A stretch of DNA of 64,000 nt from an uncultured Nesterenkonia sp. Its GTDB lineage: Bacteria > Actinomycetota > Actinomycetes > Actinomycetales > Micrococcaceae. The notes below the pieces were generated by a model. The model searched no databases and was not told the DNA's origin. It saw only the letters and a list, made by a program, of their open reading frames with translations. The DNA lies in NCBI GenBank assembly GCA_946222885.1, contig CAMIAK010000001.1:230806-294805 (forward strand), written 5' to 3'. The translations under genes and the position numbers were made by a program. Shown here piece by piece: positions 1-47,904 of the stretch. Each line of letters opens with the position of its first letter. The stretch's first letter is position 1.

Positions 1-187
1 CGAGAGACCCCTGGCCGTCGGATTCCTATCCGTCGCCGCGCTGATGTACCTCTACAGCGTCATCGAGGCCCAAGTACTCAGCGACGGAAACCGGTGGCTA
101 CAGATCGGGTTCGTCGTCATCGCCCTCGGAGGGCTCGCCGCCCGGTGGTTGAGAATCCGGAAAGCGAACTACGACCCCGTGACATAG
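1..187 (+). CDS. 4-TM membrane protein, 3' fragment (copy 1 of the gene at 43221..43661; 5' end lies left of the window)
   Basis: Sequence identical to 43475..43661; ends at the TAG at 185-187. Confidence 0.5.
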   Translation, partial: ERPLAVGFLSVAALMYLYSVIEAQVLSDGNRWLQIGFVVIALGGLAARWLRIRKANYDPVT

Positions 188-197
188 GAGGGCTCTC

Positions 198-527
198 ATG
201 GGGGACGAGAACCCTCTGATCTACCTACTCGGCGGCGGATCACTATCGCTACTGATGGCAGCATTCATCAAAGGCGCGTGGGACTGGCTGAAAGGCCGAC
301 ACGAGCGAGAAAGAGCCCAGTCTAAGGACCGCCGCGACACCATCACCACCTTGAAGCAGGAGGTCCGGGACGCTGAGGCTGAGGCCGACGAGGCTCGGGC
401 AGAGTCCATCCGCCACCAGCGCCGAGCCAGCGTCCTCTGGGAGTACGCCTACCGGCTGAGGCGGCACACGATCAGCACCTACCAGGCTGACCCAGACAGC
501 CTCCCGCCCTGGCCCGAAGACCACTGA
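198..527 (+). CDS. lysis-cassette protein with N-terminal TM helix and charged coiled-coil tail (holin/spanin-like, hypothetical); copy 1
   Basis: 109-aa ORF with a GGGSLSLLMAAFIKGAW transmembrane segment followed by a charged helical region; sits immediately upstream of the endolysin; identical to 43672..44001. Confidence 0.5.
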   Translation: MGDENPLIYLLGGGSLSLLMAAFIKGAWDWLKGRHERERAQSKDRRDTITTLKQEVRDAEAEADEARAESIRHQRRASVLWEYAYRLRRHTISTYQADPDSLPPWPEDH

Positions 528-588
528 CCACACCCACAACCCCCGCTCCACACAGACGGGGGTTTTCTCATGCCTGAAGGAGGCCCCC

Positions 589-747
589 ATGGGGAAGCAC
601 CTGGTACACGACGACATCCCTATCGAGCTCGACGACGACGTGGATGTGTCCCTGCTCGACGCAGACCCGGACGACGAGGACAGCGGACTGGACCTGGAGA
701 AAGTCTACGCCGATGAGCTGGCCGACGCTGAGGAGGTGGAGGCATGA
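589..747 (+). CDS. small acidic protein (52 aa); copy 1
   Basis: ATG preceded by GAAGGAGG; very Asp/Glu-rich; its stop overlaps the endolysin ATG (ATGA). Confidence 0.4.
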   Translation: MGKHLVHDDIPIELDDDVDVSLLDADPDDEDSGLDLEKVYADELADAEEVEA

Positions 748-1898
748 GCACGATCATCTCCCGCGCCTCCTGGGGTGCTCGATTCCAGGACGGCTACGGT
801 AATCGCCCGGTCGGATCGCTGGCTGTGTACGGGCATCACAGCGTGACCGGCCACAGCGGCCCGTCGGCCACCTTCGCTCAGGACTGCGCCGCCGTGCGCA
901 CCGTCGAAAGGGTAGGGCAACAGATCTACCGAGTCGGGATGAGCTACACCTTCCTGATCCCGCCGTCTGGTCGGATCTTCCAAGGTGTCAGCATCGGCCG
1001 CGTCTCGGCCCACACGATCAACCGGAACACCGGTGGTGCCGGGATCTGCTTCATCGGCAATTACGAGCGCGAGTCCCTGACTGCCGCACAGATCGCGGCC
1101 ACAGCATGGCTCCTGGACCATGGGCGGCGGCAGGGCTGGTGGACCACTGACCGGTTCACCGCCCTGCACCGTGACGTCTTCGCCACCGCCTGCCCCGGCA
1201 GGAACGCCGTCAGTCCGCTCCGGGCTGTCCGGGCGTCCAGCGGCTCCACCTCCACCACGGGCGCCGGCTCCACCACCAATAGCCTGACCGGCTTCCTCCG
1301 CGCCACTCGCGACACGGAGCTGCGTAGCGGCCCTCTGTCCACGCACAAGAAGGTCCGCGACGTGAAGGAGGGTGAGCTGCTGATCGGCTCCGGGCAGGAT
1401 AGTCAGTGGTGGACTGGAGTCGGTGACCTTTGGGTGCCGAAATCCGCAGTCGAGAAGCGCAAGCACGGCGGTTCCAGTGACGTCCTGCACCACGGGCAGT
1501 GGCCCGACCGGGACCTGCCGCTGGACGCCAACCGGAGCCGTGAGTTCTTCCTCGCCTGGGAGGACCTCCTGCGCCGCACCGGCGACTGGAGCGACCGGGA
1601 CGGCAGCGTGCACGCGGCGATCAAGCGGTGGCTCCGCGGTGCATGGAACCCCGCCGCCAACTCTGGCAAGGGCTACGGCGTCGGCTGGGGCAAGGAGATG
1701 ACCGGCCAGTACGGGCGCGGCCTCAAGCGGGCACTACGCGACCGGGGCTTCTTCTCCGGCGACGTCTCCACCGGCGCATGGACCGACGAGCTCACCCGTG
1801 CGGAGAAGGCGTTCCTCAACGACCAGCGCCGCCACCTGGCACCCCAGCCGCCCTCGGCCACGACCCATACCCGCGCATTCTCAGGAAAGGTGCACTGA
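744..1898 (+). CDS. endolysin: N-acetylmuramoyl-L-alanine amidase (PGRP/Amidase_2) with C-terminal PG_binding_1-like domain; copy 1
   Basis: N-terminus shows the Amidase_2 pattern with His-His and a CPG zinc ligand (AVYGHHSVTGH ... ATACPG); the C-terminus has a GRGLKRALRDRGFF...TRAEKAFL peptidoglycan-binding motif. Confidence 0.85.
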   Translation: MSTIISRASWGARFQDGYGNRPVGSLAVYGHHSVTGHSGPSATFAQDCAAVRTVERVGQQIYRVGMSYTFLIPPSGRIFQGVSIGRVSAHTINRNTGGAGICFIGNYERESLTAAQIAATAWLLDHGRRQGWWTTDRFTALHRDVFATACPGRNAVSPLRAVRASSGSTSTTGAGSTTNSLTGFLRATRDTELRSGPLSTHKKVRDVKEGELLIGSGQDSQWWTGVGDLWVPKSAVEKRKHGGSSDVLHHGQWPDRDLPLDANRSREFFLAWEDLLRRTGDWSDRDGSVHAAIKRWLRGAWNPAANSGKGYGVGWGKEMTGQYGRGLKRALRDRGFFSGDVSTGAWTDELTRAEKAFLNDQRRHLAPQPPSATTHTRAFSGKVH

Positions 1899-1900
1899 TC

Positions 1901-2227
1901 ATGGCAGGAACCCCCACACAGCAGGCCCACCCGTGGAAAGCAGCCCTACGAACCGCGGTGCAGACCTTCCTTCCCCTGATCCTGGGGCTGATGATCGCAG
2001 GCCCGGAGATCGTGGAAGCCTTCGCTGACGTGCCCACTGATGGTGCCGCGTGGGCCACCCTCGGCGGTGTAGCAGTCGGCCTGTCTGCCGTGGCCGGTGC
2101 GCTGGCACGAGTCGCCGCAATCCCCGCCGTAGAGAAGGTGCTGATCCGCCTGGGTCTCGGCACCGGGGTCGAGAAAGAAGACCCCTGGGAAGTCGTCGAC
2201 AACCCGCCTGCACGCCCCGCAGAATAA
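1901..2227 (+). CDS. holin-like 2-TM protein; copy 1
   Basis: ATG overlaps the endolysin stop (TGATCATG); two hydrophobic helices (FLPLILGLMIAG, LGGVAVGLSAVAGALA) and a charged C-terminus. Confidence 0.6.
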   Translation: MAGTPTQQAHPWKAALRTAVQTFLPLILGLMIAGPEIVEAFADVPTDGAAWATLGGVAVGLSAVAGALARVAAIPAVEKVLIRLGLGTGVEKEDPWEVVDNPPARPAE

Positions 2228-2250
2228 GTACCGGAGCGAACACCGACAGA

Positions 2251-2294
2251 GCCGCCCCACCTTGCTTCGGCAGGGTGGGGCGGTTGCTTTTTTG
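2251..2294 (+). terminator. rho-independent terminator after lysis operon (copy 1)
   Basis: GC-rich stem GCCGCCCCACC...GGTGGGGCGG followed by a TTTTTT run. Confidence 0.7.
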
Positions 2295-2397
2295 TGTCCA
2301 AAACACGATTAGCCAGGTAGAATGAGAGCGGCCCCAGAGAGTGCTACCAACACTCACCAGGGCCTGACCCACTCACTTGAGATAGCAAGGAGGGGCT

Positions 2398-2931
2398 ATG
2401 AAAAAGCCTACCCCGATCACATCCATCCCCGAGTCCCAGGCCGAGATCGCTCGACTGCGGATTACACGCAACACGGACGTCTCGCCGCATGGTTGCTGGG
2501 AATGGAACAAGGCTCTCGACCGGTATGGATACGGTCGATTCCGCATCACATTGGCTGGTCAAGTTCGCTCCTCCGGCGCCCACCGCATATCTTGGCTTGT
2601 CTTCCGTGGGGAAATACCTGACCCGCGCTTGCAGATTGACCATCTCTGCCGCAACCGTCGATGTGTGAATCCCGATCATCTGGAACTCGTCACGAACTAT
2701 CAGAACTACGAGCGGGCAGCACCCTTCCCGGAATGGCAGTTCGGCGTTCGGGGCAGTCGTGGCCGCCCGCCTATCCGCACCAAGGAAAAATGTGCACACG
2801 GTCACCCATGGATCCCCGAGAACATCTATGTACGCGTGGATCGCAACGGATATGTCCACAAGACCTGCAAGCAGTGCAACCGCATTCGCAGCCTCGCGGC
2901 AAAGGTGAAGCGTCGGGCAAGCAGTGCCTAG
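2398..2931 (+). CDS. HNH endonuclease (HNH_3-type, free-standing); copy 1
   Basis: Motifs HGCWEW..YGYGRF..AHRISW..DHLCRNRRCVNPDHL..TN; RBS AAGGAGGG upstream. Confidence 0.85.
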   Translation: MKKPTPITSIPESQAEIARLRITRNTDVSPHGCWEWNKALDRYGYGRFRITLAGQVRSSGAHRISWLVFRGEIPDPRLQIDHLCRNRRCVNPDHLELVTNYQNYERAAPFPEWQFGVRGSRGRPPIRTKEKCAHGHPWIPENIYVRVDRNGYVHKTCKQCNRIRSLAAKVKRRASSA

Positions 2932-3127
2932 CCCAGGTCATACGGATCCCGCCATGATGACTCGGCCCGGCTGATCCTGTTTACCCACCCCGCAGGCACC
3001 CATGCGCTGCGGCTTTCGTGTGCCTAGGTGGCGTGAGGCCGGCCTCGCAAGGACACTAGTAGGTTCTCAGGAAGTCAACAGTCGCGACATCTCCTCCATG
3101 GCATCCTTAGCCGCAGGGGGTGGAGGC

Positions 3128-4243
3128 CTACGATCCCAGCGCCCGCGCCGCGTACCCTGCCGCCTCGAACTGCGCATCCGGCATCAGGTGTCCGTACACA
3201 TTCCTGGTCATTGTCTCGTCGTGTCCGAGGTGTGCGGCGAGCTTCCACGTCTCCATGCCGGCCGCCAGCATCAGTGACGCATGGGTATGCCTTAGCGCAT
3301 ACAGCGTTGGTTTCTTCGCCAGCTTGCCTGCTGTCCGAGCCTTCTCGGCAGCCCTGGAGAAAGCTCCAGACAGGGAGTCCTCTGACATCCAGTCGCCCCG
3401 AGCTCCGGGGAAGAGGCGTTCCTGGGACTCCCTGCCCTCACATCGCCTCTTCAGCATCTGCACCGCCGACGGTGGTAGCCCAATCGACCGGCGGGACGCC
3501 CGGGACTTCACCGGGCCAAGATGCTCGCCCTTCTCGCGGTCCTGATTGATAGCGATTGTCACCCGGATTACCGGCTGCTTTTGGTCTAGCCAGCAGTCCC
3601 CGACAGTGAGGGCGCGCAGCTCAGCAGGCCGCATACCGGTGGCAAGCATGAGCGCTGCTGCATCCTGGTAGGGCTGCGGAATCCGGTCAATGATCGCTTG
3701 GGCTTCGGTTCTGGTGAGGAACTGGTGATGCTCGGCCTCGTCTGTGCGCTCCACAGGAGGGAGCATCCCTGCTTTCATCGGGTTTCCAGACCTCCAGCCG
3801 CGCTCCTCGGCGTGCAGGAAGATGCTGGATAGCCAGCCGCAGATGTTGTGGATGTACTTCGGGCTCAGCCCCTTCTTCTCCAGGGAGATCACGAAGCGGC
3901 GGCAATCGTCCTCGCTGACCGTGTCCACCGGCCAAGACCCTAAAGTAGGACTGATGTGATTCTTGACGTAGGTCCGATAAGTCTGCACCGTGTAGGAGCG
4001 CGCTCGAAGCAGCTCCATCCTGTGCTCTGAGACCTGATTTACAGTCTTGGCGCGGGAAGACTGGCGTGCCAGTGCCTCGGCGGCGCGCTTACTGTCGCCG
4101 CCTACCTCCTCGATCAGTGACTTCCAGAGGTCTGCCTTCTCCCGGGTGGGCCATGTCTTGGATTTCTTGATGCCTTCTGGTGTGCGCCATACGACGCGGT
4201 ATGTCGTCCCCCTGGGACGCTCGCGGACTTCGATGCTAGCCAT
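3128..4243 (-). CDS. int: tyrosine integrase (phage integrase family); copy 1
   Basis: Arm-binding N-terminus (RPRGTTYRVVWRTPEGIKKSKTWPT) and a C-terminal catalytic region with R..H..R..Y (LRHTHASLML...HDETMTRNVYGHL); adjacent to the att site. Confidence 0.9.
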   Translation of the reverse strand: MASIEVRERPRGTTYRVVWRTPEGIKKSKTWPTREKADLWKSLIEEVGGDSKRAAEALARQSSRAKTVNQVSEHRMELLRARSYTVQTYRTYVKNHISPTLGSWPVDTVSEDDCRRFVISLEKKGLSPKYIHNICGWLSSIFLHAEERGWRSGNPMKAGMLPPVERTDEAEHHQFLTRTEAQAIIDRIPQPYQDAAALMLATGMRPAELRALTVGDCWLDQKQPVIRVTIAINQDREKGEHLGPVKSRASRRSIGLPPSAVQMLKRRCEGRESQERLFPGARGDWMSEDSLSGAFSRAAEKARTAGKLAKKPTLYALRHTHASLMLAAGMETWKLAAHLGHDETMTRNVYGHLMPDAQFEAAGYAARALGS

Positions 4244-4340
4244 GCCCTGATTCTAAGGGATTCTGGGGGACATAATTCCGTAACTGGGGGACTGGAAGCG
4301 ATTCGACACCCTCGGATCGGCATTATTCCGGCCCTCATTC

Positions 4341-4363
4341 GGCGGAGCGTGTGGGATTCGAAC
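4341..4363. other. attP-like core: last ~23 nt of tRNA-Ser (GGCGGAGCGTGTGGGATTCGAAC) at the phage-phage junction of the tandem prophage
   Basis: Identity with the 3' end of the full tRNA-Ser at 47815..47837; identity with copy 2 ends exactly at 4363/47837, after which phage left-arm sequence begins. Confidence 0.6.
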
Positions 4364-18453: not shown

Positions 18454-19083
18454 ATGGCTCGAACCTGTGATTTCGAGAACTGCGGCAGGAAACACTACGG
18501 ACGCGGATACTGCGTGGGTCACTACAACCAGTCATGGAGGGGGCAGGAGATGAGGCCCCTCAAAGACGACATAACAGATGCCGAGCGTTTATGGTCGAAG
18601 GCCAGCAGGCCCGACGAAGCGAGCTGCTGGCAGTGGGAAGCCAGTAAATACCCGGCAGGCTACGGCCAGTTCTACACCAAAGGGGGACTCGTCCCGGCGC
18701 ATAGGTTCGCCTGGGAGCTGACCTACGGGGCAATCCCCGATGGCGCGCAAGTGGACCATGTTTGCCATAACCGCGCCTGCATCAATCCAGGCCACTTGAG
18801 GCTAGCGACCAACGCGCTAAACCTGCAGAACCGTGCAGCGTTGAACCGCAACAACACCAGCGGCCACCGTGGCGTCACATGGAAGCGCGGGTCGAAAGCG
18901 TGGGCAGCCCAAGCGGTGCTAGGCGGTAAGCGACACCACCTTGGGGTCTACGCCGACAAGGAAGAAGCGGCACGAGCGGCGACCGCCTGGCGTCGAGAAC
19001 ACATGCCCTACAGCATCAAAGACCAAGAGCCTACGGGCTCTTTTTTTATGCCAGAAACCACCAGCACAGAGGAGCAGAAATGA
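18454..19083 (+). CDS. HNH endonuclease fused to an AP2 DNA-binding domain (HNH_3-type paralog)
   Basis: CWQWEASKYPAGYG..AHRFAW..DHVCHNRACINPGHL followed by GHRGVTWKRGSKAWAAQAVLGGKRHHLGVY (AP2-like). Confidence 0.8.
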   Translation: MARTCDFENCGRKHYGRGYCVGHYNQSWRGQEMRPLKDDITDAERLWSKASRPDEASCWQWEASKYPAGYGQFYTKGGLVPAHRFAWELTYGAIPDGAQVDHVCHNRACINPGHLRLATNALNLQNRAALNRNNTSGHRGVTWKRGSKAWAAQAVLGGKRHHLGVYADKEEAARAATAWRREHMPYSIKDQEPTGSFFMPETTSTEEQK

Positions 19084-21412: not shown

Positions 21413-21712
21413 ATGGCCTGGTCCACATCCGACCGCAGGCATCGACTGCCATCCGACTGGCCCGACCTCAAGGCCCGAGTCAAGGCCCGAGCCCGAGGCC
21501 GGTGCGAGGCCGACCGACATGATCCCCGGTGCGATGGCACAGGCCACGACGCAGACCACATCCAGCCAGGCGACGACCACACACTCGAGAACCTGCAGTG
21601 GCTCAACACCCACTGCCACCGAGCCAAGACAGCACGCGAGAGTGCAGCACGCAACACAGCAGCAGCACAGCTGCGCAAGCGACCAGCAGAGTCGCATCCA
21701 GGACGACTCTAG
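21413..21712 (+). CDS. HNH endonuclease (small cos/packaging-associated type)
   Basis: RBS GGAGGAAG; motif GRCEADRHDPRCDGTGHDADHIQP...NLQWLNTHCH; the 20714..21712 ORF in the track is an over-extension in this frame. Confidence 0.8.
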   Translation: MAWSTSDRRHRLPSDWPDLKARVKARARGRCEADRHDPRCDGTGHDADHIQPGDDHTLENLQWLNTHCHRAKTARESAARNTAAAQLRKRPAESHPGRL

Positions 21713-21722
21713 GAGGCACGCC

Positions 21723-21947
21723 ATGCCCAGCATCCAGCTGCTACGATCCGTCGGAGGAAGGCAGAAGGATCAGATCATCAGCGTTGGTCAAGGACAAGCT
21801 GAGCATCTGATCGCCAATGGATATGCCAAGGCAGTCGAGGAGCCAGAGCCTGAGTCGAAGCCCGAACCGAAGCGACGCACTCGAGCACGGAAGGCCCAAG
21901 GGGGTGGGGGTGACTCCCCCTCGAAGGAGCCCACCACCGCCGGATAG
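21723..21947 (+). CDS. hypothetical protein (74 aa)
   Basis: In-frame ATG within ORF 21378..21947; basic/Pro-rich C-terminus. Confidence 0.4.
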   Translation: MPSIQLLRSVGGRQKDQIISVGQGQAEHLIANGYAKAVEEPEPESKPEPKRRTRARKAQGGGGDSPSKEPTTAG

Positions 21948-22080
21948 CATTCCCCGTTATTCGTTGGCATTTGATTTCATTTGCCGCCATTAAATGACAC
22001 TTGCTAACAACCAAAACGCCGTGCTTGCCGTAGTTCCCTGAGATTCCGCTGATTATTCGTAACGCTGATATACTTGTCTC

Positions 22081-22635
22081 ATGAACAAGAGTTGCGAGTC
22101 GTGCGGTTTGGGGCTGTTGATTGCCAGGGCCGATGCCAGGTTCTGCTCGGTCTCCTGCAAGCAGAGGGCGTACCGGAAGCGCAAAAAACAAGAGACGGTC
22201 ATCCCGGCCGAAATGCGCAACCGGGATCGCTGGGTGCGCTGGATTCTAAAGGGGCGCGGTGGGCGGATGACCAAGATCCCCGTTCAGGTGTCAGGTCGCA
22301 ACGCTTCTTCAGTTGACCCCTCAACATGGTCTGATTTTCGGTCAGCCGCCGAGTCCAGCATTGGCCGGGGCATGGGGTTCATGCTTGGCGATGGCATTGG
22401 GTGCTTCGACTTGGACCACTGCTTTACTGACGGTGAGCTTGCGGATTGGGCGCAAGAGCGGCTTGACGCTGTAGAAGATCCGTTATTTGTGGAAGTCTCG
22501 CAGTCCGGCGAGGGGTTGCATATTTTCTGCTGGATGGACGAACAGCCGGCCAACGCTCGAAGGGCGCACCCTGGCGTCGAGGTTTATTCGCAGAAGCGCT
22601 TTATCGCCATGACGGGGGACCGCTATGGCGGATGA
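22081..22635 (+). CDS. Zn-ribbon plus Prim-Pol (archaeo-eukaryotic primase, PF09250-like) domain protein
   Basis: CESCG..CSVSC ribbon, then RWVRWIL..KIPV..DPSTWSDF.., GFMLGDGIGCFDLDHCF (DxD), SQSGEGLHIFCW (sGxGxH), VEVYSQKRFIAMTGD; lower-GC codon usage. Confidence 0.55.
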   Translation: MNKSCESCGLGLLIARADARFCSVSCKQRAYRKRKKQETVIPAEMRNRDRWVRWILKGRGGRMTKIPVQVSGRNASSVDPSTWSDFRSAAESSIGRGMGFMLGDGIGCFDLDHCFTDGELADWAQERLDAVEDPLFVEVSQSGEGLHIFCWMDEQPANARRAHPGVEVYSQKRFIAMTGDRYGG

Positions 22636-23380
22636 GCAGGCATTTATCCGGGTGGCGATGTGCGGTCATGTTTATGAGTCGCCCCATCGGAGCGGCAGGG
22701 TTCGGCGGTTCGGTGAGTGCGATTGCAGCGAGCAACCGAAGGTGAGCAGCACGTTTCAGCAGGAGTGCTTGCGCTGCGGTGAGAGCTTCTGGTGGAAGAA
22801 ATATCGGGAGTATTGCTCAGAGCGGTGTCGGAGAACCATAGAACGACGCCGCAAGCTGGGGGTTCCAGTGCGAGACCGAGTGCCAGAGTGCGAGCGGTGC
22901 AAGCAGCCTATAGAGGACGCTTACCGAGTAAGCCAGGTCCGGTGTGCCGGTTGCCGAGGCAAAGAGACTCCATTTCTGGAAGACCGCACATGCCCGACCT
23001 GTGGCGGGATTTTCACTCCCACCAGGAGGAAACAGCGCTCTTGCTCAAACCGATGTGCCCAGAAGTGGTATAAGAAGAACGTTCGCGTTCCTGAGCCGTG
23101 GGATGATCGACGCCGCGCGAACTACCAGAAGCGGCGGGCACGCAAGCTTGAGCTTCCATCCGAGGACATACGGCCCATAAAGATATATGAGCGCGATGGC
23201 TGGATGTGTGGGATCTGCGAGCACCCCGTTGACCCCGAGATGAAGTGGCCCGATCCTCGGTCGCCATCCCTGGACCACGTGAAGCCTCTGTCTAAGGGCG
23301 GGCATCATATTGAATCAAACGTGCAGCTTGCTCATCTTGAATGCAATGTCTCGAAGGGAGACAGAGTTTTAGCCGCATAG
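22625..23380 (+). CDS. multi-zinc-ribbon protein with C-terminal HNH nuclease domain
   Basis: Repeated CxxC pairs; C-terminus DGWMCGICEHPVD..SLDHVKPLSKGGHH..NVQLAHLECNVSKGDR. Confidence 0.7.
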   Translation: MADEQAFIRVAMCGHVYESPHRSGRVRRFGECDCSEQPKVSSTFQQECLRCGESFWWKKYREYCSERCRRTIERRRKLGVPVRDRVPECERCKQPIEDAYRVSQVRCAGCRGKETPFLEDRTCPTCGGIFTPTRRKQRSCSNRCAQKWYKKNVRVPEPWDDRRRANYQKRRARKLELPSEDIRPIKIYERDGWMCGICEHPVDPEMKWPDPRSPSLDHVKPLSKGGHHIESNVQLAHLECNVSKGDRVLAA

Positions 23381-23392
23381 CCCCTGGAGGGC

Positions 23393-23776
23393 GTGACATC
23401 CCTGGAGGATACCGTGGCATCGAAGCCGAAGGCACCAAAGAACCTGCGTGAGCGAGGTCGGCGCACCTGGGACAACGTGACTAGCAAGTACGAGTTGCGT
23501 TTCGATGAGCTGGACATCCTGGAGGACATCTGCCGGGAGATTGACATGATCGACTCCCTAGAAGAGGCCCTTGAAGGAGCGCCTAAAACCGTACGTGGAT
23601 CACAGGGCCAGGAAGTCGCCAACCCCCTCATCACTGAGCTGCGCCAACATCGCTCCACCAAAAAGGCGCTTTGGGGTGCGATAAAATTGCCCGAAGAGAA
23701 CAATGTTCCAGCCGTGAACCAACAGCGTGATGCCATTCAGTCTCGCTGGGCGGCTGCTCATGGCGCGGTCGCGTAA
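23393..23776 (+). CDS. terminase small subunit (P27-family-like)
   Basis: KYELRFDELDILEDICREIDMID pattern; immediately upstream of and overlapping terL. Confidence 0.65.
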   Translation: MTSLEDTVASKPKAPKNLRERGRRTWDNVTSKYELRFDELDILEDICREIDMIDSLEEALEGAPKTVRGSQGQEVANPLITELRQHRSTKKALWGAIKLPEENNVPAVNQQRDAIQSRWAAAHGAVA

Positions 23777-25535
23777 TGCCGCCGCTGCCTATCTGCCGAA
23801 CCGCACTGACGAAGCTGAGGAGATCAAGGCCTGGTATCGCCAGGAGCTATCAGAGACGCTCCCTCAGATCGGGCTGAAGTATGAGCCGGTCAAGTGCGGT
23901 CCGACGTGGCAGCACGACGGATCCTCATGGGTGCTTCCTCGCTGGTCCCTGGGATGGGAGGCGCTTGCCTTCGCTGGTCAGCACCTGACCCATAAGGGCA
24001 AGCCGTGGAAGTTCACTATGGAGCAGGCGCGCTTCCTGCTGTGGTTCTACTCGGTGGATGAGCATGGCGTCTTCGACTATCACTCCGCTGTCCTGCAACG
24101 CCTGAAGGGCTGGGGCAAGGACCCCTTCGCCGCGGTACTGTCCGCGTCGGTTCTTGTCGGTCCTCTCGAGTTCGATCACTGGGGTGCGGATGATCAGCCG
24201 GTGGGACGACAGGTCAGCGACTCTTGGGTGCAGATTGCGGCTGTTTCGCTGGATCAGACGAAGAACACGATGAAGATCTTCCCTGGCCTTATCCCGGCGG
24301 AGACTCGGCGGCTCTTCGGGATCCAGATCGGCAAGCAGAACGTCTGGGCTCGTGGTGATGAGGCCCAGATCGAGGCCGTGACTGCCTCCCCGATGGCTAT
24401 TGAGGGCGGGCGTCCGAAGCTGATCATCCGGGCGGAGACCCAGAATTGGAACTCCTCCAATGGTGGCCATGACATGGCGGGTGCCATGGAGGGCAACGCG
24501 GCGAAGGCTGAGATGGGCACGCCGGCTCGGATCTTGGACATCTGCAACGCTTACCGGCCTGGTGAGGATTCGGTAGGGCAGCAGCAGCGTGAGGCCTGGG
24601 AGGAGTCGCAGGGCGAGGATGCCAAGACTGCCGATTTCGGTCTCATGTATGACTCTCTGGAGGCTCCCCCCGAGGCGGCGCTGACGAAGGATGATGCCCC
24701 GGAGGTCGTAGAGGCGGTCCGCGGTGACTCGGTGTGGCTCGACGCTAAGGGTCGCATCCTGAACTCGATCCTGAATCCGGCGAACAGCCCGGCGGAGTCG
24801 CGGCGCAAGTGGTACAACCAGGTGGTTGCCGCCGAGGATGCGTGGACGGAGCCACTGGAGTTTGACCCGCTCAAGGACACGGAGAAGGCGGTCGAGCCCA
24901 ACGAGGAGGTCACTCTCTTCCTGGACTGCGCGAAAACCGACGACGCCACGGCTCTTGTCGGGTGCCGCATGTCGGATGGACATGTCTTCACAGTGGATAT
25001 GTGGCAGCGCCCACCGGGCAAGCGCGGCGACGGATGGGTGGTGCCGCGCAACGCGGTCGATCAGCGGATCCGCGAGTGCCTGGACAAGTACCGGGTGGTC
25101 GGATTCTTCGGAGACCCGGCTCACGCCTTGGATGACGAGACGATGGACCGCTTTTGGGATCCGCTCTTCTCTGAATGGGACCTACTGGTGCGCCGCAAGG
25201 TCAAGGTCTGGGCGTCGGGAAAGACGACCGGGCGCGACTCCTCCGCGGTCATGTTCGACATGTCGGCCCGCGACAATGCACGGCGCTTCGCTGAGGCCGC
25301 GGCCTTCACGCTCGAGGAGATCAAGTCAGGCTCCTTCACCTGGGACGGCGACGCCAGACTCCGCAAACACGTGCTCAACGCACGCCGGTATCCGGTCCAG
25401 GGGTATGTGTCCATTGCCAAGGAATCCAGGGAATCCAAGAAGAAGGTTGACCTCGCGGTCGCCATGATCGGCGCTCGAATGGTCCGCCGGCAGGTGCTCA
25501 CACAAGGGAAGAAGAGAGGTGGCGGCGTATGGTGA
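23727..25535 (+). CDS. terminase large subunit
   Basis: 602 aa; Walker-A-like GWGKDPFAAVL and a C-terminal nuclease region; true start may be the ATG at 23760. Confidence 0.85.
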   Translation: MMPFSLAGRLLMARSRNAAAAYLPNRTDEAEEIKAWYRQELSETLPQIGLKYEPVKCGPTWQHDGSSWVLPRWSLGWEALAFAGQHLTHKGKPWKFTMEQARFLLWFYSVDEHGVFDYHSAVLQRLKGWGKDPFAAVLSASVLVGPLEFDHWGADDQPVGRQVSDSWVQIAAVSLDQTKNTMKIFPGLIPAETRRLFGIQIGKQNVWARGDEAQIEAVTASPMAIEGGRPKLIIRAETQNWNSSNGGHDMAGAMEGNAAKAEMGTPARILDICNAYRPGEDSVGQQQREAWEESQGEDAKTADFGLMYDSLEAPPEAALTKDDAPEVVEAVRGDSVWLDAKGRILNSILNPANSPAESRRKWYNQVVAAEDAWTEPLEFDPLKDTEKAVEPNEEVTLFLDCAKTDDATALVGCRMSDGHVFTVDMWQRPPGKRGDGWVVPRNAVDQRIRECLDKYRVVGFFGDPAHALDDETMDRFWDPLFSEWDLLVRRKVKVWASGKTTGRDSSAVMFDMSARDNARRFAEAAAFTLEEIKSGSFTWDGDARLRKHVLNARRYPVQGYVSIAKESRESKKKVDLAVAMIGARMVRRQVLTQGKKRGGGVW

Positions 25536-43224: not shown

Positions 43225-43661
43225 ATAAGCCACGCGCACCACTCGGGCTCGCATCGAAGGTCTGGGCATTCATCGAGGAACCGAAGTCGGTCACCCTCGT
43301 CCAAGCAGTCGGGGTCTACACCACCGCGATAATCTTCGGCGTGCTCTCATTCCTGCACCCGCCCCGGACCACGTCAGTGATCCTCGGTGACTTCCTGGTC
43401 ACCAGCATCTCTGCGCTGATGATCTTCGCCGGGGCGGTAGGTGTGGTCACTAGCGTTACTGGCTGGTGGTGGATCGAGAGACCCCTGGCCGTCGGATTCC
43501 TATCCGTCGCCGCGCTGATGTACCTCTACAGCGTCATCGAGGCCCAAGTACTCAGCGACGGAAACCGGTGGCTACAGATCGGGTTCGTCGTCATCGCCCT
43601 CGGAGGGCTCGCCGCCCGGTGGTTGAGAATCCGGAAAGCGAACTACGACCCCGTGACATAG
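43221..43661 (+). CDS. 4-TM membrane protein (holin/antiholin-like) heading the lysis cassette
   Basis: Four hydrophobic helices; upstream of the endolysin. Confidence 0.55.
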   Translation: MNKPRAPLGLASKVWAFIEEPKSVTLVQAVGVYTTAIIFGVLSFLHPPRTTSVILGDFLVTSISALMIFAGAVGVVTSVTGWWWIERPLAVGFLSVAALMYLYSVIEAQVLSDGNRWLQIGFVVIALGGLAARWLRIRKANYDPVT

Positions 43662-43671
43662 GAGGGCTCTC

Positions 43672-44001
43672 ATGGGGGACGAGAACCCTCTGATCTACCT
43701 ACTCGGCGGCGGATCACTATCGCTACTGATGGCAGCATTCATCAAAGGCGCGTGGGACTGGCTGAAAGGCCGACACGAGCGAGAAAGAGCCCAGTCTAAG
43801 GACCGCCGCGACACCATCACCACCTTGAAGCAGGAGGTCCGGGACGCTGAGGCTGAGGCCGACGAGGCTCGGGCAGAGTCCATCCGCCACCAGCGCCGAG
43901 CCAGCGTCCTCTGGGAGTACGCCTACCGGCTGAGGCGGCACACGATCAGCACCTACCAGGCTGACCCAGACAGCCTCCCGCCCTGGCCCGAAGACCACTG
44001 A
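43672..44001 (+). CDS. TM plus coiled-coil lysis-cassette protein (copy 2 of 198..527)
   Basis: Identical to copy 1. Confidence 0.5.
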   Translation: MGDENPLIYLLGGGSLSLLMAAFIKGAWDWLKGRHERERAQSKDRRDTITTLKQEVRDAEAEADEARAESIRHQRRASVLWEYAYRLRRHTISTYQADPDSLPPWPEDH

Positions 44002-44062
44002 CCACACCCACAACCCCCGCTCCACACAGACGGGGGTTTTCTCATGCCTGAAGGAGGCCCCC

Positions 44063-44221
44063 ATGGGGAAGCACCTGGTACACGACGACATCCCTATCGA
44101 GCTCGACGACGACGTGGATGTGTCCCTGCTCGACGCAGACCCGGACGACGAGGACAGCGGACTGGACCTGGAGAAAGTCTACGCCGATGAGCTGGCCGAC
44201 GCTGAGGAGGTGGAGGCATGA
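44063..44221 (+). CDS. small acidic protein (copy 2 of 589..747)
   Basis: Identical to copy 1. Confidence 0.4.
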   Translation: MGKHLVHDDIPIELDDDVDVSLLDADPDDEDSGLDLEKVYADELADAEEVEA

Positions 44222-45372
44222 GCACGATCATCTCCCGCGCCTCCTGGGGTGCTCGATTCCAGGACGGCTACGGTAATCGCCCGGTCGGATCGCTGGCTGT
44301 GTACGGGCATCACAGCGTGACCGGCCACAGCGGCCCGTCGGCCACCTTCGCTCAGGACTGCGCCGCCGTGCGCACCGTCGAAAGGGTAGGGCAACAGATC
44401 TACCGAGTCGGGATGAGCTACACCTTCCTGATCCCGCCGTCTGGTCGGATCTTCCAAGGTGTCAGCATCGGCCGCGTCTCGGCCCACACGATCAACCGGA
44501 ACACCGGTGGTGCCGGGATCTGCTTCATCGGCAATTACGAGCGCGAGTCCCTGACTGCCGCACAGATCGCGGCCACAGCATGGCTCCTGGACCATGGGCG
44601 GCGGCAGGGCTGGTGGACCACTGACCGGTTCACCGCCCTGCACCGTGACGTCTTCGCCACCGCCTGCCCCGGCAGGAACGCCGTCAGTCCGCTCCGGGCT
44701 GTCCGGGCGTCCAGCGGCTCCACCTCCACCACGGGCGCCGGCTCCACCACCAATAGCCTGACCGGCTTCCTCCGCGCCACTCGCGACACGGAGCTGCGTA
44801 GCGGCCCTCTGTCCACGCACAAGAAGGTCCGCGACGTGAAGGAGGGTGAGCTGCTGATCGGCTCCGGGCAGGATAGTCAGTGGTGGACTGGAGTCGGTGA
44901 CCTTTGGGTGCCGAAATCCGCAGTCGAGAAGCGCAAGCACGGCGGTTCCAGTGACGTCCTGCACCACGGGCAGTGGCCCGACCGGGACCTGCCGCTGGAC
45001 GCCAACCGGAGCCGTGAGTTCTTCCTCGCCTGGGAGGACCTCCTGCGCCGCACCGGCGACTGGAGCGACCGGGACGGCAGCGTGCACGCGGCGATCAAGC
45101 GGTGGCTCCGCGGTGCATGGAACCCCGCCGCCAACTCTGGCAAGGGCTACGGCGTCGGCTGGGGCAAGGAGATGACCGGCCAGTACGGGCGCGGCCTCAA
45201 GCGGGCACTACGCGACCGGGGCTTCTTCTCCGGCGACGTCTCCACCGGCGCATGGACCGACGAGCTCACCCGTGCGGAGAAGGCGTTCCTCAACGACCAG
45301 CGCCGCCACCTGGCACCCCAGCCGCCCTCGGCCACGACCCATACCCGCGCATTCTCAGGAAAGGTGCACTGA
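44218..45372 (+). CDS. endolysin: amidase_2/PGRP plus PG-binding domain (copy 2)
   Basis: Identical to 744..1898. Confidence 0.85.
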   Translation: MSTIISRASWGARFQDGYGNRPVGSLAVYGHHSVTGHSGPSATFAQDCAAVRTVERVGQQIYRVGMSYTFLIPPSGRIFQGVSIGRVSAHTINRNTGGAGICFIGNYERESLTAAQIAATAWLLDHGRRQGWWTTDRFTALHRDVFATACPGRNAVSPLRAVRASSGSTSTTGAGSTTNSLTGFLRATRDTELRSGPLSTHKKVRDVKEGELLIGSGQDSQWWTGVGDLWVPKSAVEKRKHGGSSDVLHHGQWPDRDLPLDANRSREFFLAWEDLLRRTGDWSDRDGSVHAAIKRWLRGAWNPAANSGKGYGVGWGKEMTGQYGRGLKRALRDRGFFSGDVSTGAWTDELTRAEKAFLNDQRRHLAPQPPSATTHTRAFSGKVH

Positions 45373-45374
45373 TC

Positions 45375-45701
45375 ATGGCAGGAACCCCCACACAGCAGGC
45401 CCACCCGTGGAAAGCAGCCCTACGAACCGCGGTGCAGACCTTCCTTCCCCTGATCCTGGGGCTGATGATCGCAGGCCCGGAGATCGTGGAAGCCTTCGCT
45501 GACGTGCCCACTGATGGTGCCGCGTGGGCCACCCTCGGCGGTGTAGCAGTCGGCCTGTCTGCCGTGGCCGGTGCGCTGGCACGAGTCGCCGCAATCCCCG
45601 CCGTAGAGAAGGTGCTGATCCGCCTGGGTCTCGGCACCGGGGTCGAGAAAGAAGACCCCTGGGAAGTCGTCGACAACCCGCCTGCACGCCCCGCAGAATA
45701 A
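45375..45701 (+). CDS. holin-like 2-TM protein (copy 2)
   Basis: Identical to 1901..2227. Confidence 0.6.
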   Translation: MAGTPTQQAHPWKAALRTAVQTFLPLILGLMIAGPEIVEAFADVPTDGAAWATLGGVAVGLSAVAGALARVAAIPAVEKVLIRLGLGTGVEKEDPWEVVDNPPARPAE

Positions 45702-45724
45702 GTACCGGAGCGAACACCGACAGA

Positions 45725-45768
45725 GCCGCCCCACCTTGCTTCGGCAGGGTGGGGCGGTTGCTTTTTTG
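45725..45768 (+). terminator. rho-independent terminator after lysis operon (copy 2)
   Basis: Identical to 2251..2294. Confidence 0.7.
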
Positions 45769-45871
45769 TGTCCAAAACACGATTAGCCAGGTAGAATGAG
45801 AGCGGCCCCAGAGAGTGCTACCAACACTCACCAGGGCCTGACCCACTCACTTGAGATAGCAAGGAGGGGCT

Positions 45872-46405
45872 ATGAAAAAGCCTACCCCGATCACATCCAT
45901 CCCCGAGTCCCAGGCCGAGATCGCTCGACTGCGGATTACACGCAACACGGACGTCTCGCCGCATGGTTGCTGGGAATGGAACAAGGCTCTCGACCGGTAT
46001 GGATACGGTCGATTCCGCATCACATTGGCTGGTCAAGTTCGCTCCTCCGGCGCCCACCGCATATCTTGGCTTGTCTTCCGTGGGGAAATACCTGACCCGC
46101 GCTTGCAGATTGACCATCTCTGCCGCAACCGTCGATGTGTGAATCCCGATCATCTGGAACTCGTCACGAACTATCAGAACTACGAGCGGGCAGCACCCTT
46201 CCCGGAATGGCAGTTCGGCGTTCGGGGCAGTCGTGGCCGCCCGCCTATCCGCACCAAGGAAAAATGTGCACACGGTCACCCATGGATCCCCGAGAACATC
46301 TATGTACGCGTGGATCGCAACGGATATGTCCACAAGACCTGCAAGCAGTGCAACCGCATTCGCAGCCTCGCGGCAAAGGTGAAGCGTCGGGCAAGCAGTG
46401 CCTAG
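45872..46405 (+). CDS. HNH endonuclease (HNH_3-type; copy 2)
   Basis: Identical to 2398..2931. Confidence 0.85.
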   Translation: MKKPTPITSIPESQAEIARLRITRNTDVSPHGCWEWNKALDRYGYGRFRITLAGQVRSSGAHRISWLVFRGEIPDPRLQIDHLCRNRRCVNPDHLELVTNYQNYERAAPFPEWQFGVRGSRGRPPIRTKEKCAHGHPWIPENIYVRVDRNGYVHKTCKQCNRIRSLAAKVKRRASSA

Positions 46406-46601
46406 CCCAGGTCATACGGATCCCGCCATGATGACTCGGCCCGGCTGATCCTGTTTACCCACCCCGCAGGCACCCATGCGCTGCGGCTTTCGTGTGCCTA
46501 GGTGGCGTGAGGCCGGCCTCGCAAGGACACTAGTAGGTTCTCAGGAAGTCAACAGTCGCGACATCTCCTCCATGGCATCCTTAGCCGCAGGGGGTGGAGG
46601 C

Positions 46602-47717
46602 CTACGATCCCAGCGCCCGCGCCGCGTACCCTGCCGCCTCGAACTGCGCATCCGGCATCAGGTGTCCGTACACATTCCTGGTCATTGTCTCGTCGTGTCC
46701 GAGGTGTGCGGCGAGCTTCCACGTCTCCATGCCGGCCGCCAGCATCAGTGACGCATGGGTATGCCTTAGCGCATACAGCGTTGGTTTCTTCGCCAGCTTG
46801 CCTGCTGTCCGAGCCTTCTCGGCAGCCCTGGAGAAAGCTCCAGACAGGGAGTCCTCTGACATCCAGTCGCCCCGAGCTCCGGGGAAGAGGCGTTCCTGGG
46901 ACTCCCTGCCCTCACATCGCCTCTTCAGCATCTGCACCGCCGACGGTGGTAGCCCAATCGACCGGCGGGACGCCCGGGACTTCACCGGGCCAAGATGCTC
47001 GCCCTTCTCGCGGTCCTGATTGATAGCGATTGTCACCCGGATTACCGGCTGCTTTTGGTCTAGCCAGCAGTCCCCGACAGTGAGGGCGCGCAGCTCAGCA
47101 GGCCGCATACCGGTGGCAAGCATGAGCGCTGCTGCATCCTGGTAGGGCTGCGGAATCCGGTCAATGATCGCTTGGGCTTCGGTTCTGGTGAGGAACTGGT
47201 GATGCTCGGCCTCGTCTGTGCGCTCCACAGGAGGGAGCATCCCTGCTTTCATCGGGTTTCCAGACCTCCAGCCGCGCTCCTCGGCGTGCAGGAAGATGCT
47301 GGATAGCCAGCCGCAGATGTTGTGGATGTACTTCGGGCTCAGCCCCTTCTTCTCCAGGGAGATCACGAAGCGGCGGCAATCGTCCTCGCTGACCGTGTCC
47401 ACCGGCCAAGACCCTAAAGTAGGACTGATGTGATTCTTGACGTAGGTCCGATAAGTCTGCACCGTGTAGGAGCGCGCTCGAAGCAGCTCCATCCTGTGCT
47501 CTGAGACCTGATTTACAGTCTTGGCGCGGGAAGACTGGCGTGCCAGTGCCTCGGCGGCGCGCTTACTGTCGCCGCCTACCTCCTCGATCAGTGACTTCCA
47601 GAGGTCTGCCTTCTCCCGGGTGGGCCATGTCTTGGATTTCTTGATGCCTTCTGGTGTGCGCCATACGACGCGGTATGTCGTCCCCCTGGGACGCTCGCGG
47701 ACTTCGATGCTAGCCAT
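46602..47717 (-). CDS. int: tyrosine integrase (copy 2)
   Basis: Identical to 3128..4243; adjacent to the complete tRNA-Ser. Confidence 0.9.
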   Translation of the reverse strand: MASIEVRERPRGTTYRVVWRTPEGIKKSKTWPTREKADLWKSLIEEVGGDSKRAAEALARQSSRAKTVNQVSEHRMELLRARSYTVQTYRTYVKNHISPTLGSWPVDTVSEDDCRRFVISLEKKGLSPKYIHNICGWLSSIFLHAEERGWRSGNPMKAGMLPPVERTDEAEHHQFLTRTEAQAIIDRIPQPYQDAAALMLATGMRPAELRALTVGDCWLDQKQPVIRVTIAINQDREKGEHLGPVKSRASRRSIGLPPSAVQMLKRRCEGRESQERLFPGARGDWMSEDSLSGAFSRAAEKARTAGKLAKKPTLYALRHTHASLMLAAGMETWKLAAHLGHDETMTRNVYGHLMPDAQFEAAGYAARALGS

Positions 47718-47813
47718 GCCCTGATTCTAAGGGATTCTGGGGGACATAATTCCGTAACTGGGGGACTGGAAGCGATTCGACACCCTCGGATCGGCATTAT
47801 TCCGGCCCTCATT

Positions 47814-47904
47814 CGGCGGAGCGTGTGGGATTCGAACCCACGGTGCAGGGTCACTGCACAACAGTTTTCAAGACTGTCACCTTCGGCCGCTCGGACAACG
47901 CTCC
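47814..47904 (-). tRNA. tRNA-Ser (anticodon TGA), type II with long variable arm; prophage attachment target
   Basis: Reverse complement GGAGCGT...TTGTGCAGTGACCCTGCAC...GGGTTCGAATCCCACACGCTCCGCC; anticodon loop CTTGAAA; 7-bp acceptor stem; GTTCGAATC T-loop. Confidence 0.85.
47815..47837. other. attR core (shared with the attP-like junction at 4341..4363)
   Basis: Copy-1/copy-2 identity ends at 47837; host tRNA body continues from 47838. Confidence 0.6.

Follow-up and report, generated by a model that had tools for sequence, protein, structure and literature searches.

Why would a temperate phage carry a gene for a primase-polymerase inside its packaging region, pressed against the site where its chromosome is cut? 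The question is raised by a 64,000-nucleotide stretch of DNA from an uncultured Nesterenkonia sp. (contig CAMIAK010000001.1, positions 230,806 to 294,805 of the forward strand), which we call the window and whose positions we use throughout. The window holds a 43,474-bp (43.5-kb) cos-type temperate siphophage, integrated in tandem at the tRNA-Ser gene of a high-GC actinobacterium. Between its predicted cos site and the terminase genes terS and terL lies a module of two genes, primpol, for a small primase-polymerase, and HNH2, for a nuclease. We find, with high confidence, that the first 1.43 kb of the packaged chromosome consists of an AT-rich leader with a predicted promoter and a conserved box, primpol, and a coupled HNH2, and that this unit is optional and exchanged among phages. 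The module consists of the following features.

21948..22080, + strand: AT-rich left-end leader (GC 0.444) with a left-end motif, a box and a -10 hexamer
22081..22635, + strand: primpol, minimal zinc-ribbon primase-polymerase of 184 aa (phrog_8643, E 1.5e-58; AlphaFold2 model; Foldseek)
22625..23380, + strand: HNH2, multi-zinc-ribbon HNH endonuclease of 251 aa (PF01844, E 6.5e-8; phrog_1271, E 6e-24)

An earlier sequence-only reading of this DNA had placed both open reading frames (ORFs) exactly at these coordinates; they overlap by 11 nt, and HNH2 is translationally coupled to primpol.

A zinc ribbon on a bare catalytic core

Residues 3-183 of primpol match positions 2-172 of phrog_8643 ('DNA polymerase/primase', 179 positions), and a further match covers the initial ~160 positions of phage primases of 770-790 aa (phrog_1829, E 3e-34). 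The sequence-only reading had described a stand-alone zinc-ribbon core of the archaeo-eukaryotic-type primase (AEP) or Prim-Pol class with no helicase, to be checked against PF09250. This profile was not detected on the primpol sequence at E<=1 in Pfam, where PF08800 was the sole match (15.3 bits, cutoff 22.4), and NCBIfam gave nothing useful for primpol, but the description itself proved right on other grounds. The homologues, all of 175-215 aa, are named 'bifunctional DNA primase/polymerase' by NCBI, and many carry a precomputed PF09250, some of them weak. The AlphaFold2 (AF2) model (pLDDT 89.7, pTM 0.81) consists of a small N-terminal ribbon, a helix and an alpha/beta core. In a Foldseek search against the PDB its top six matches are NrS-1 Prim-Pol N300 structures (E ~1e-10, best 1.7e-10; 28-31% identity; TMq 0.64-0.66); the pRN1 primase ranks after these, and the NrS-1 matches alone are significant. 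The family profile run against PDB sequences retrieved 7OLA, a 797-aa 'DNA primase' (E 1.7e-27), and NrS-1 (E 3e-26), pairing DLDH, SxSGxGLH and EVY...RY with both; D110, D112, S142, H147 and E167 of primpol fall opposite DLDH, SPSGDGLH and LEVY of the two enzymes. PHROG, homologue and fold evidence thus establish primpol as a zinc ribbon joined to an AEP Prim-Pol core, with these parts.

nt 22093-22158, + strand: zinc ribbon, C5, C8, C22 and C26 (CxxC...CxxxC)
residues 24-40, + strand: long helix (AF2)
residues ~45-184, + strand: AEP core (fold, profile)
nt 22408-22416, + strand: motif I, D110/D112 (hhhDhD)
to nt 22521, + strand: motif II, S142..H147 (sGxGxH)
nt 22579-22581, + strand: motif III, E167 (VEVYS)

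We assessed conservation over 104 unique family members of 164-219 aa, 39-56% identical to the window primpol. D110, D112, S142, H147, Y169 and R173 are present in 104/104 and E167 in 103/104, while among the zinc ligands C5 and C8 are kept in 103/104, C22 in 104/104, and position 26 is C in 92 and H in 12. The hhhDhD and sGxGxH motifs recognized from the letters alone are therefore real and invariant, but the 'TGD' that had been read as the third motif had to be rejected: residue 180 is variable (N in 41, R in 26, D in 13), and since D180 varies while E167 is kept, we assign motif III to E167. The invariance of active-site and zinc residues in this set speaks for selection on catalysis, and primpol is probably a catalytically active enzyme, transcribed on its own, rather than a decayed domain.

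The protein ends 5 residues past TG179, directly after the catalytic core, and lacks the ~20-aa C-terminal tail (PxxLADL...) of most members. No helix-bundle domain (HBD) or helicase was found in it; the HBD profile PF22763 occurs only in long relatives, such as P0211. An exhaustive profile search yielded 219 clusters at 50% identity (E<=1e-30), in which the matches that include the zinc ribbon are nearly all 165-235 aa long and the long proteins match from the core onward only.

The predicted cos site and the left end of the chromosome

The position of the module relative to cos depends on the following features.

21413..21712, + strand: HNH1, cos-associated HNH endonuclease, second-to-last virion gene (PF01844, 24.4 bits; phrog_333, E 1e-30)
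21723..21947, + strand: small DUF7302 ORF, last virion gene (PF23976, 27.9 bits; homologue of Footloose gp72)
21896..21946, no strand: predicted cos site (alignment with Footloose and contig ends)
21896-21920, no strand: conserved G-rich motif CCAAGGGGGTGGGGGTGACTCCCC in cos (relatives)
21900-21908 and 21930-21938, no strand: 9-nt inverted repeat GGGGGTGGG/CCCACCACC bracketing the region just upstream of the cut (repeat search)
21936-21945, no strand: ACCGCCGGAT, candidate 3' cohesive end (conserved immediately before the left-end column)
23393 or 23414..23776, + strand: terS (phrog_1496, E 8e-23)
23727..25535, + strand: terL (phrog_9, E 2e-61)

The closest isolate is the Microbacterium phage Footloose, with 71% nucleotide identity across terL, portal and MuF. 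The Footloose record and five independent contigs (L009, L016, L036, L039, L049) all begin in one MAFFT column, AGCA..., which equals window position 21946, and window positions 21896-21917 are 95% identical to a 22-nt motif lying 28-49 nt before the Footloose right end. The Footloose genome has the homologues of HNH1 (gp71) and of the small ORF at its right end and terS as its first gene, at nt 79, and its nt 61-79, the terS ribosome-binding region, align with window 23378-23396. These alignments place the predicted virion left end at 21946, a cut predicted by homology to record and contig ends rather than from reads; the module would then occupy the opening 1.43 kb of the packaged chromosome, from cos to terS, and the expectation of the sequence-only reading that cos lies beside the module is borne out by the same column. 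After that column the left-end motif reads GTCCTGCGTGCG in relatives, of which the window has a diverged form, GTTATTCGTTGG (21956-21967). The DUF7302 ORF ends in a stop codon that overlaps the predicted cut.

We also recorded the strand asymmetry of this region. The minimum of the cumulative GC skew over one prophage unit falls at 21749, ~200 bp from the predicted cos end; the amplitude of this skew is small, and a second local minimum lies near 33-34 kb. The AT skew is 0.34 in the 5 kb left of 21946 versus 0.05 in the 5 kb to the right, all genes there being on the same strand.

The slot between cos and terS is the rule for the family

A primase-polymerase in a packaging module had been called atypical in the sequence-only reading. 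Comparison with other phages overturns this view, since members of the 165-220-aa family occupy the interval from cos to the packaging genes in over 100 actinobacterial phages. We collected loci from IMG/VR (the best 80 of 197) and from GTDB genomes; the searches were based on a 13-sequence alignment, both sets were seeded with two conserved peptides, so that divergent members are possibly under-sampled, and terS and terL were called by a tblastn panel, by which very divergent terminases may be missed (e.g. L115). A terminase gene adjoins primpol in 80/80 IMG/VR loci, 50 of them co-directional and 30 divergent. Among the co-directional loci, 12/50 contigs start 190-305 bp upstream of primpol; in the divergent ones an HNH1-like gene lies past the primpol 3' end, and seven contigs end 125-211 bp after primpol. 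HNH1-like genes in fact border cos in many primpol loci. Likewise, 23/24 full-length primpol matches in GTDB genomes adjoin terS/terL, in Arthrobacter, Agrococcus, Microbacterium, Pseudoclavibacter, Nocardia, Plantibacter, Corynebacterium, Actinomyces, Schaalia and Streptomyces, versus none of the 27 GTDB matches that lack the zinc ribbon (mostly from Firmicutes, most of them in 290-860-aa ORFs and a few short fragments).

Isolates with defined ends follow the same order, with primpol as gene 1, 185-300 bp from the left end, and then terS and terL. They include Arthrobacter phage Bauer, Mycobacterium phage Krakatau (and 13 further cluster-F records), Propionibacterium phage B22 and its relatives, Corynebacterium phages Poushou and Juicebox, and Streptomyces phage Samy, whose cos end has been mapped experimentally (PMC11302927). 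Actinomyces phage xhp1, which has annotated 3' cohesive ends, shows the divergent layout: HNH, cos, primpol pointing left, then terS and terL pointing right. The order primpol, terS, terL, portal, MuF is found in five metagenomic contexts (L009-L012, L017), and the position between cos and terS in 7/7 metagenomic contexts examined (the same five, L153 and L155). We conclude that the cos-terS slot is the rule for the primpol family, in either orientation.

Public labels in this region are inconsistent. The names given to the small primpol are 'hypothetical protein', 'HNH endonuclease', 'DNA binding protein' and 'DNA polymerase/primase'. RefSeq lists the terS homologues of Krakatau and Sandalphon as 'minor tail protein' (L002, L004 and L150 among the records), a label also borne by VWB gp32, which we take as terS from its position just before terL.

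An optional cassette exchanged at cos

The module is an optional, horizontally exchanged accessory cassette. Footloose has HNH, small ORF, cos and terS in the same order without primpol and HNH2, which answers the synteny check proposed with the sequence-only reading: only the small ORF and cos separate the HNH gene from terS there, and the two module genes are not core in relatives. A metagenomic relative (L017) has flanks 70-78% identical in nucleotides to the window, a primpol allele 55% identical at the protein level, and no HNH2. In the mycobacteriophages of cluster F, 286 records share the Krakatau terS/terL DNA at 92-99.6%, and the 746-nt primpol segment is present in 14 only. The horizontal acquisition that had been suspected is thus supported by absence, allelic replacement and sporadic presence. 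Krakatau (L002/L008) and Sandalphon (L150/L151) share an identical 33-nt cos core, and both flanks differ, Krakatau carrying primpol on the left of cos and Sandalphon a 247-aa zinc-ribbon HNH (ZnR-HNH) protein on the right. Near-identical cluster-F phages with and without primpol are both viable isolates, and Samy encodes its small primpol plus a large DNA primase and a DNA polymerase. Since Samy has a separate primase and polymerase, and Footloose and most cluster-F phages have no primpol, the gene is neither the core replicative primase nor essential for packaging.

Transcription is documented in Samy lysogens, where SAMYPH_1 and SAMYPH_2 belong to the most-expressed set in 6 and 7 of 10 non-inducing conditions, and terS, terL and all structural genes are outside that set (PMC11302927, Table S3). 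This expression in lysogens is known for the Samy homologue alone, which is 42% identical to the window primpol.

A few members are predicted to be fused to their neighbors. P0169 is a predicted fusion of primpol to a terS of phrog_1496, the terS family of the window, P0125 a predicted fusion of primpol to a terS of phrog_1459, and P0229 a predicted fusion of an HNH2-type multi-ribbon nuclease to a zinc-ribbon primpol. In its DNA context (L157:1957-2922), P0169 is preceded by an HNH gene and a gap and followed by terL, with no separate terS; because its terS domain starts ~10 residues past the core, we regard it as a compact fusion and not as read-through.

A predicted -10-only promoter and a conserved box in the leader

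The leader (21948..22080, GC 0.444) is the lowest 133-bp window of the phage part (mean 0.629, sd 0.045; 0.06% of windows as low), as the sequence-only reading had noticed, although the local GC is ~0.63 and not 66%. The module genes were also said to be AT-richer. Their GC (primpol 0.589, HNH2 0.578) and GC3 (0.70 and 0.65, versus 0.76-0.81 for terL, portal and DUF7341) are indeed lower, but only modestly, a 1300-bp window at GC 0.583 standing at the 2nd percentile; and as the core gene terS is equally low (0.576), the low-GC stretch extends past the two module genes. Strong AT-richness of the leader is confined to the lineage of the window, the upstream GC in other loci being near the GC of the locus.

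The tract contains the direct repeat reported earlier: the 8-mer TTATTCGT occurs exactly twice in the 64 kb, at 21957 and 22053. One such repeat in 133 bp has an estimated expectation of about 0.1 and is not significant alone. Each copy sits inside a separately conserved element, copy 1 in the left-end motif and copy 2 in a promoter-proximal box, GATTATYCGTAAC. The two upstream signals of primpol are as follows.

22051-22063, + strand: conserved box GATTATTCGTAAC, with copy 2 of TTATTCGT (box statistics across 86 loci)
22069-22074, + strand: -10 hexamer TATACT, 6 nt before the primpol ATG (promoter statistics across 86 loci)

A TAnnnT hexamer (TACAAT, TAGACT, TAGAAT and others) ends 6-9 nt before the start codon in 83/86 unique upstream regions, against a background of 0.9%, and the gap is 6-7 nt in 81 of the 83. 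With a -10 element so near the start codon, a leaderless primpol mRNA is predicted. Terminator-like hairpins within the primpol gene are no more frequent than by chance.

A (C/T)GT(A/T/G)AC box lies within 60 nt in 74/86 of the same regions (background 4.5%), as part of a conserved extended consensus of 13-15 nt, GGATTAWSCGTWACA. It overlaps the -10 hexamer in divergent loci and stands 5-11 nt, at times 18-28 nt, upstream of it in other loci; this spacing, from -3 to +28 nt, suggests a protein-binding site and not a core promoter element. The box and the -10-only promoter accompany the small primpol in phages of many actinobacterial genera (loci L009-L012, L017-L097, L001-L004, L149). Within the prophage the box occurs only once, and in Footloose, a phage without primpol, none was found. 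As primpol is the sole protein common to all these loci, the most economical inference is that the box would be bound by primpol through its zinc ribbon, for autoregulation and/or template recognition. From its conservation and position we regard the box as the prime candidate site for autoregulation, priming or both, an assignment that has a reasonable chance of being right but falls below an even one. The variants CGTAAC, CGTTAC and TGTGAC resemble the GTG(A) recognition sites of NrS-1 and pRN1, which is a lead only.

HNH2, a nuclease coupled to primpol

The second gene had been read as a protein of stacked zinc ribbons ending in an HNH nuclease, and this description is confirmed by three CxxC...C ribbons and by PF01844 at 33.0 bits (cutoff 21.4).

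residues C48/C51..C64/C68, C89/C92..C107/C110 and C123/C126..C140/C144, + strand: three zinc ribbons of HNH2 (CxxC...C)
residues 195-247, nt 23207-23365, + strand: HNH core, with D217-H218, N232 and H237 in SLDHVKPLSKGGHHIESNVQLAHLEC, flanked by C195/C198 and C240

Its C-terminal half has homologues among the HNH genes that flank cos in other phages; these are gene 1 of the Gordonia phages SweatNTears and GAL1 and, in mycobacteriophages of cluster F, the last gene, e.g. Sandalphon gp104 (247 aa, 40% identity). The overlapping primpol+HNH pair occurs also in L014-L016, where primpol is 93% identical, and, deeply diverged, in L153 (primpol 46%, HNH 53%). primpol is tail-less wherever the overlapping pair occurs (window, L014-L016, L153), and in L156 a different HNH follows a tail-less primpol. 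No HNH2 lies between primpol and terS in L017 or in the 80/80 IMG/VR loci. Conservation of the pair at 46%/53% argues for a stable partnership, and we rejected a recent homing insertion of the HNH gene as the sole account of HNH2 on the same grounds. primpol and HNH2 both match phrog_1333, a family of unknown function, and the pattern CxxCG-x9-12-(F/Y)CSxxC(R/K)xxxxR is common to the N-terminal ribbon of primpol (22081-22158) and two ribbons of HNH2 (22766-23056), which suggests a common DNA-binding module. A PADLOC search returned no match for primpol and, for HNH2, only a generic type II restriction endonuclease HNH model (E 1e-6).

Prophage setting

Window positions 1-4363 are 100% identical to 43475-47837, so the window holds two tandem prophage copies of 43,474 bp. 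The identity between the copies breaks off within the 3' end of tRNA-Ser(tga) (47815-47904, - strand), beyond which the DNA is that of the host (GC ~0.69-0.70); the att core at tRNA-Ser is about GGCGGAGCGTGTGGGATTCGAAC, and the end of the prophage unit carries an endolysin-like gene and a tyrosine integrase. From left to right, the prophage encodes a tyrosine integrase, an anti-repressor, RecE/RecT, a replication-initiator-like protein, RusA and an HNH-AP2 nuclease, and then HNH1, the DUF7302 ORF, the module, terS, terL and the portal. We found no primase, helicase or polymerase gene in the early region of the prophage, primpol being its sole polymerase- or primase-like gene. terS and terL open the conserved packaging and structural operon; the GTG at 23414 is an alternative terS start, chosen by the gene caller in L152. 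Three distinct HNH nucleases are encoded in 5 kb around cos: a homing-type HNH_3 + AP2 protein (18454-19083, phrog_3593), HNH1 (phrog_333) and HNH2 (phrog_1271).

What primpol may do at the chromosome end

The zinc ribbon of primpol probably provides template or site recognition, replacing the HBD, since primpol lacks this domain, which positions the initiating nucleotide in NrS-1 and pRN1. We propose that primpol could act as an accessory to terS, terL and HNH by initiating or extending DNA synthesis at nicks or single-stranded DNA formed at the chromosome end; possible outcomes are nick-primed rolling-circle (concatemer) synthesis or repair of cos ends, and in the lineage of the window HNH2 would be its dedicated nicking partner. 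Three observations suggest the link to the cos-processing machinery: the family is not found away from cos/terS, some members form fusions with terS or an HNH2-type nuclease, and basic replication and packaging do not require the gene. Taken as a whole, this is the best explanation that we have, and we hold it tentatively, at slightly less than an even chance. Of its parts, a role of primpol linked to terminase and cos is a distinct but minority possibility on the present comparisons. A form in which primpol docks on terS and/or HNH at the chromosome end, coupling site-specific synthesis (nick- or primase-primed) to cos nicking, and so could launch concatemers or restore damaged ends, seems improbable, and nick-and-extend specifically slightly more so.

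Several observations count against the proposal. primpol is dispensable, and an AEP core that lacks an HBD may prime poorly. Fusions make up 3 of about 219 clusters, all were predicted in metagenome assemblies, and only one was inspected at the DNA level. The box was ruled out as a fixed part of cosB, because its geometry relative to cos differs between orientations (~100-250 bp away in co-directional and ~700 bp in divergent loci). A consensus sigma-70 scan did not call a + strand primpol promoter, as a -35 element is missing from promoters of this kind. The GC-skew minimum near cos is too shallow to serve as origin evidence, its amplitude being small, and the open-access literature searched yielded no biochemical or genetic data on any primpol family member. 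Finally, a moron-type function, in defence or repair, would account at least equally well for the expression of the Samy homologue, but not of the terminase genes, in lysogens.

Such a moron-type gene, expressed from the prophage, would serve the lysogen or a conflict between phages (DNA-damage tolerance, repriming, exclusion or counter-defence), and the cos-terS junction would merely be a place that tolerates insertion and recombines. This account, about as likely in our estimation as the role linked to terminase and cos, has perhaps a chance in three or slightly less. It draws on the autonomous -10 promoter with its predicted leaderless transcript, on the transcription of the Samy homologue in uninduced lysogens alongside repressor and integrase rather than terS/terL, on the sporadic distribution over near-identical backbones, and on the use of both cos flanks as cassette swap sites; moreover, the carriers of evident lifestyle (the window prophage, the Samy prophage and the GTDB prophage loci) are temperate. 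It has to contend with the lack of any PADLOC defence model match, and a pure hotspot explains neither why the family is absent from other accessory hotspots (80/80 and 23/24 loci in the one slot) nor why the slot is retained when primpol is inverted, while the fusions with terS and HNH point to a physical connection with packaging proteins. The same junction could be occupied by a selfish mobile cassette, spread by homing or gene conversion at a double-strand break made at cos or by an HNH nuclease, with primpol as cargo or copying aid and no benefit to the phage. The sharp boundaries of presence and absence at the cos core and the terS start, the somewhat lower GC, the restriction of HNH2 to a sub-lineage together with the missing primpol tail where an HNH follows, and a primpol allele far more diverged from that of L017 (55% aa) than the flanks (70-78% nt) are all in keeping with it. 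We nevertheless consider it quite unlikely, as an HNH gene between primpol and terS is missing in more than 95% of the family, co-divergence of the primpol+HNH pair to 46%/53% speaks against a recent invasion, purifying selection on the catalytic and zinc residues is strict, and promoter and box are kept across phages of six or more host genera.

Least probable to us, and very unlikely, is that primpol is the replicative primase or an origin-specific initiator similar to ColE2 Rep, for which the AT-rich tract and the box would form the origin and a host polymerase would extend the primer. That primpol is the sole polymerase- or primase-like gene of the prophage, that its closest solved relatives are replicative enzymes, that an AT-rich tract and a unique conserved box lie beside the gene and that the cumulative GC-skew minimum (21749) is about 200 bp from cos would all be expected on this account. 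Yet primpol has no HBD and no helicase and belongs to the packaging, not the replication, module, and the strong AT-richness of the leader is found only in the lineage of the window. In particular, we reject a replicative primase, since Samy carries primpol beside a full primase and DNA polymerase, and near-identical cluster-F phages without primpol are viable. The accessory role at the chromosome end remains our preferred, tentative explanation.

Novelty and significance

The primpol family is already annotated (PHROG 8643; 'DNA polymerase/primase' in RefSeq), and the window gene is a new member of a known family. In the open-access literature searched, we found no description of the zinc ribbon with a bare core as a distinct variant, of its strict cos-terS address, of the leaderless promoter and box, or of the terS and HNH fusions, nor of a phage terminase linked directly in mechanism to a primase of the archaeo-eukaryotic type. 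A search of the Kazlauskas 2018 AEP survey (PMC5862659) and of the Bifidobacterium prophage paper turned up nothing relevant on the position or function of primpol. Primase-polymerases of the AEP class in mobile elements, usually joined to a helicase, are as a rule interpreted as replication initiators; primpol is a trimmed variant of them. If the cos-linked role is true, there would be a step at phage chromosome ends that couples DNA synthesis to end formation or repair; if primpol is instead a moron, it would be a polymerase of a new class carried by prophages. Near-isogenic natural pairs of cluster F in Mycobacterium smegmatis, Krakatau/CaptainTrips with primpol versus Sandalphon/Fruitloop without it, allow a direct test. 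As a practical point, the current annotation of primpol and its neighbors is inconsistent across records.

Comparison with known systems

Helicase-less AEP cores acting at breaks, at gaps, or at one site by their own gene are represented by LigD PolDom and Prim-PolC, of mycobacterial non-homologous end joining and base excision repair, and by ColE2 Rep. They provide a functional analogy for an end-linked or site-directed role, but they belong to other AEP clades and have no terminase link, and they gave no sequence or fold match here. The best sequence match among solved structures is the primase of 7OLA/7OM0, a 797-aa 'DNA primase' that we take to be the SaPI5 primase-helicase, to which the profile aligns over positions 36-187 versus chain residues 21-184. 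Unlike primpol, this enzyme and the primase-helicases of phrog_1829 and phrog_3022 are 770-800-aa helicase fusions encoded in replication modules.

The NrS-1 Prim-Pol (gp28, N300; PDB 6A9W, 6JOP, 7RR3) shares the AEP Prim-Pol catalytic fold with primpol, and S140-Q141-S142 of the window protein parallels its S108-P109-S110 loop (PMC8718748). However, NrS-1 is a replicative polymerase with no zinc finger, having an HBD and a C-terminal helicase-like ring, and it is the HBD that drives efficient primer initiation in NrS-1 and pRN1 (PMC8718748), whereas the window primpol has an N-terminal zinc ribbon, stops after the core and is encoded in a packaging module.

HNH endonucleases associated with cos are part of terminase-HNH packaging (Kala et al. 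2014 PNAS, as cited in PMC9030533). HNH1, upstream of cos, is by its position typical of the HK97 gp74 type. The opposite side of cos, towards terS, holds HNH2, a longer second nuclease that has three additional ribbons and is coupled to primpol. The closest counterparts of primpol are the phrog_8643 first genes (SAMYPH_1, Krakatau gp1, B22 gp1, VWB gp30 and xhp1 gp1), which agree with it in family, length, ribbon, motifs and the cos-terS slot; from most members of phrog_8643 the window primpol differs in having no C-terminal tail and in being followed by an overlapping HNH gene.

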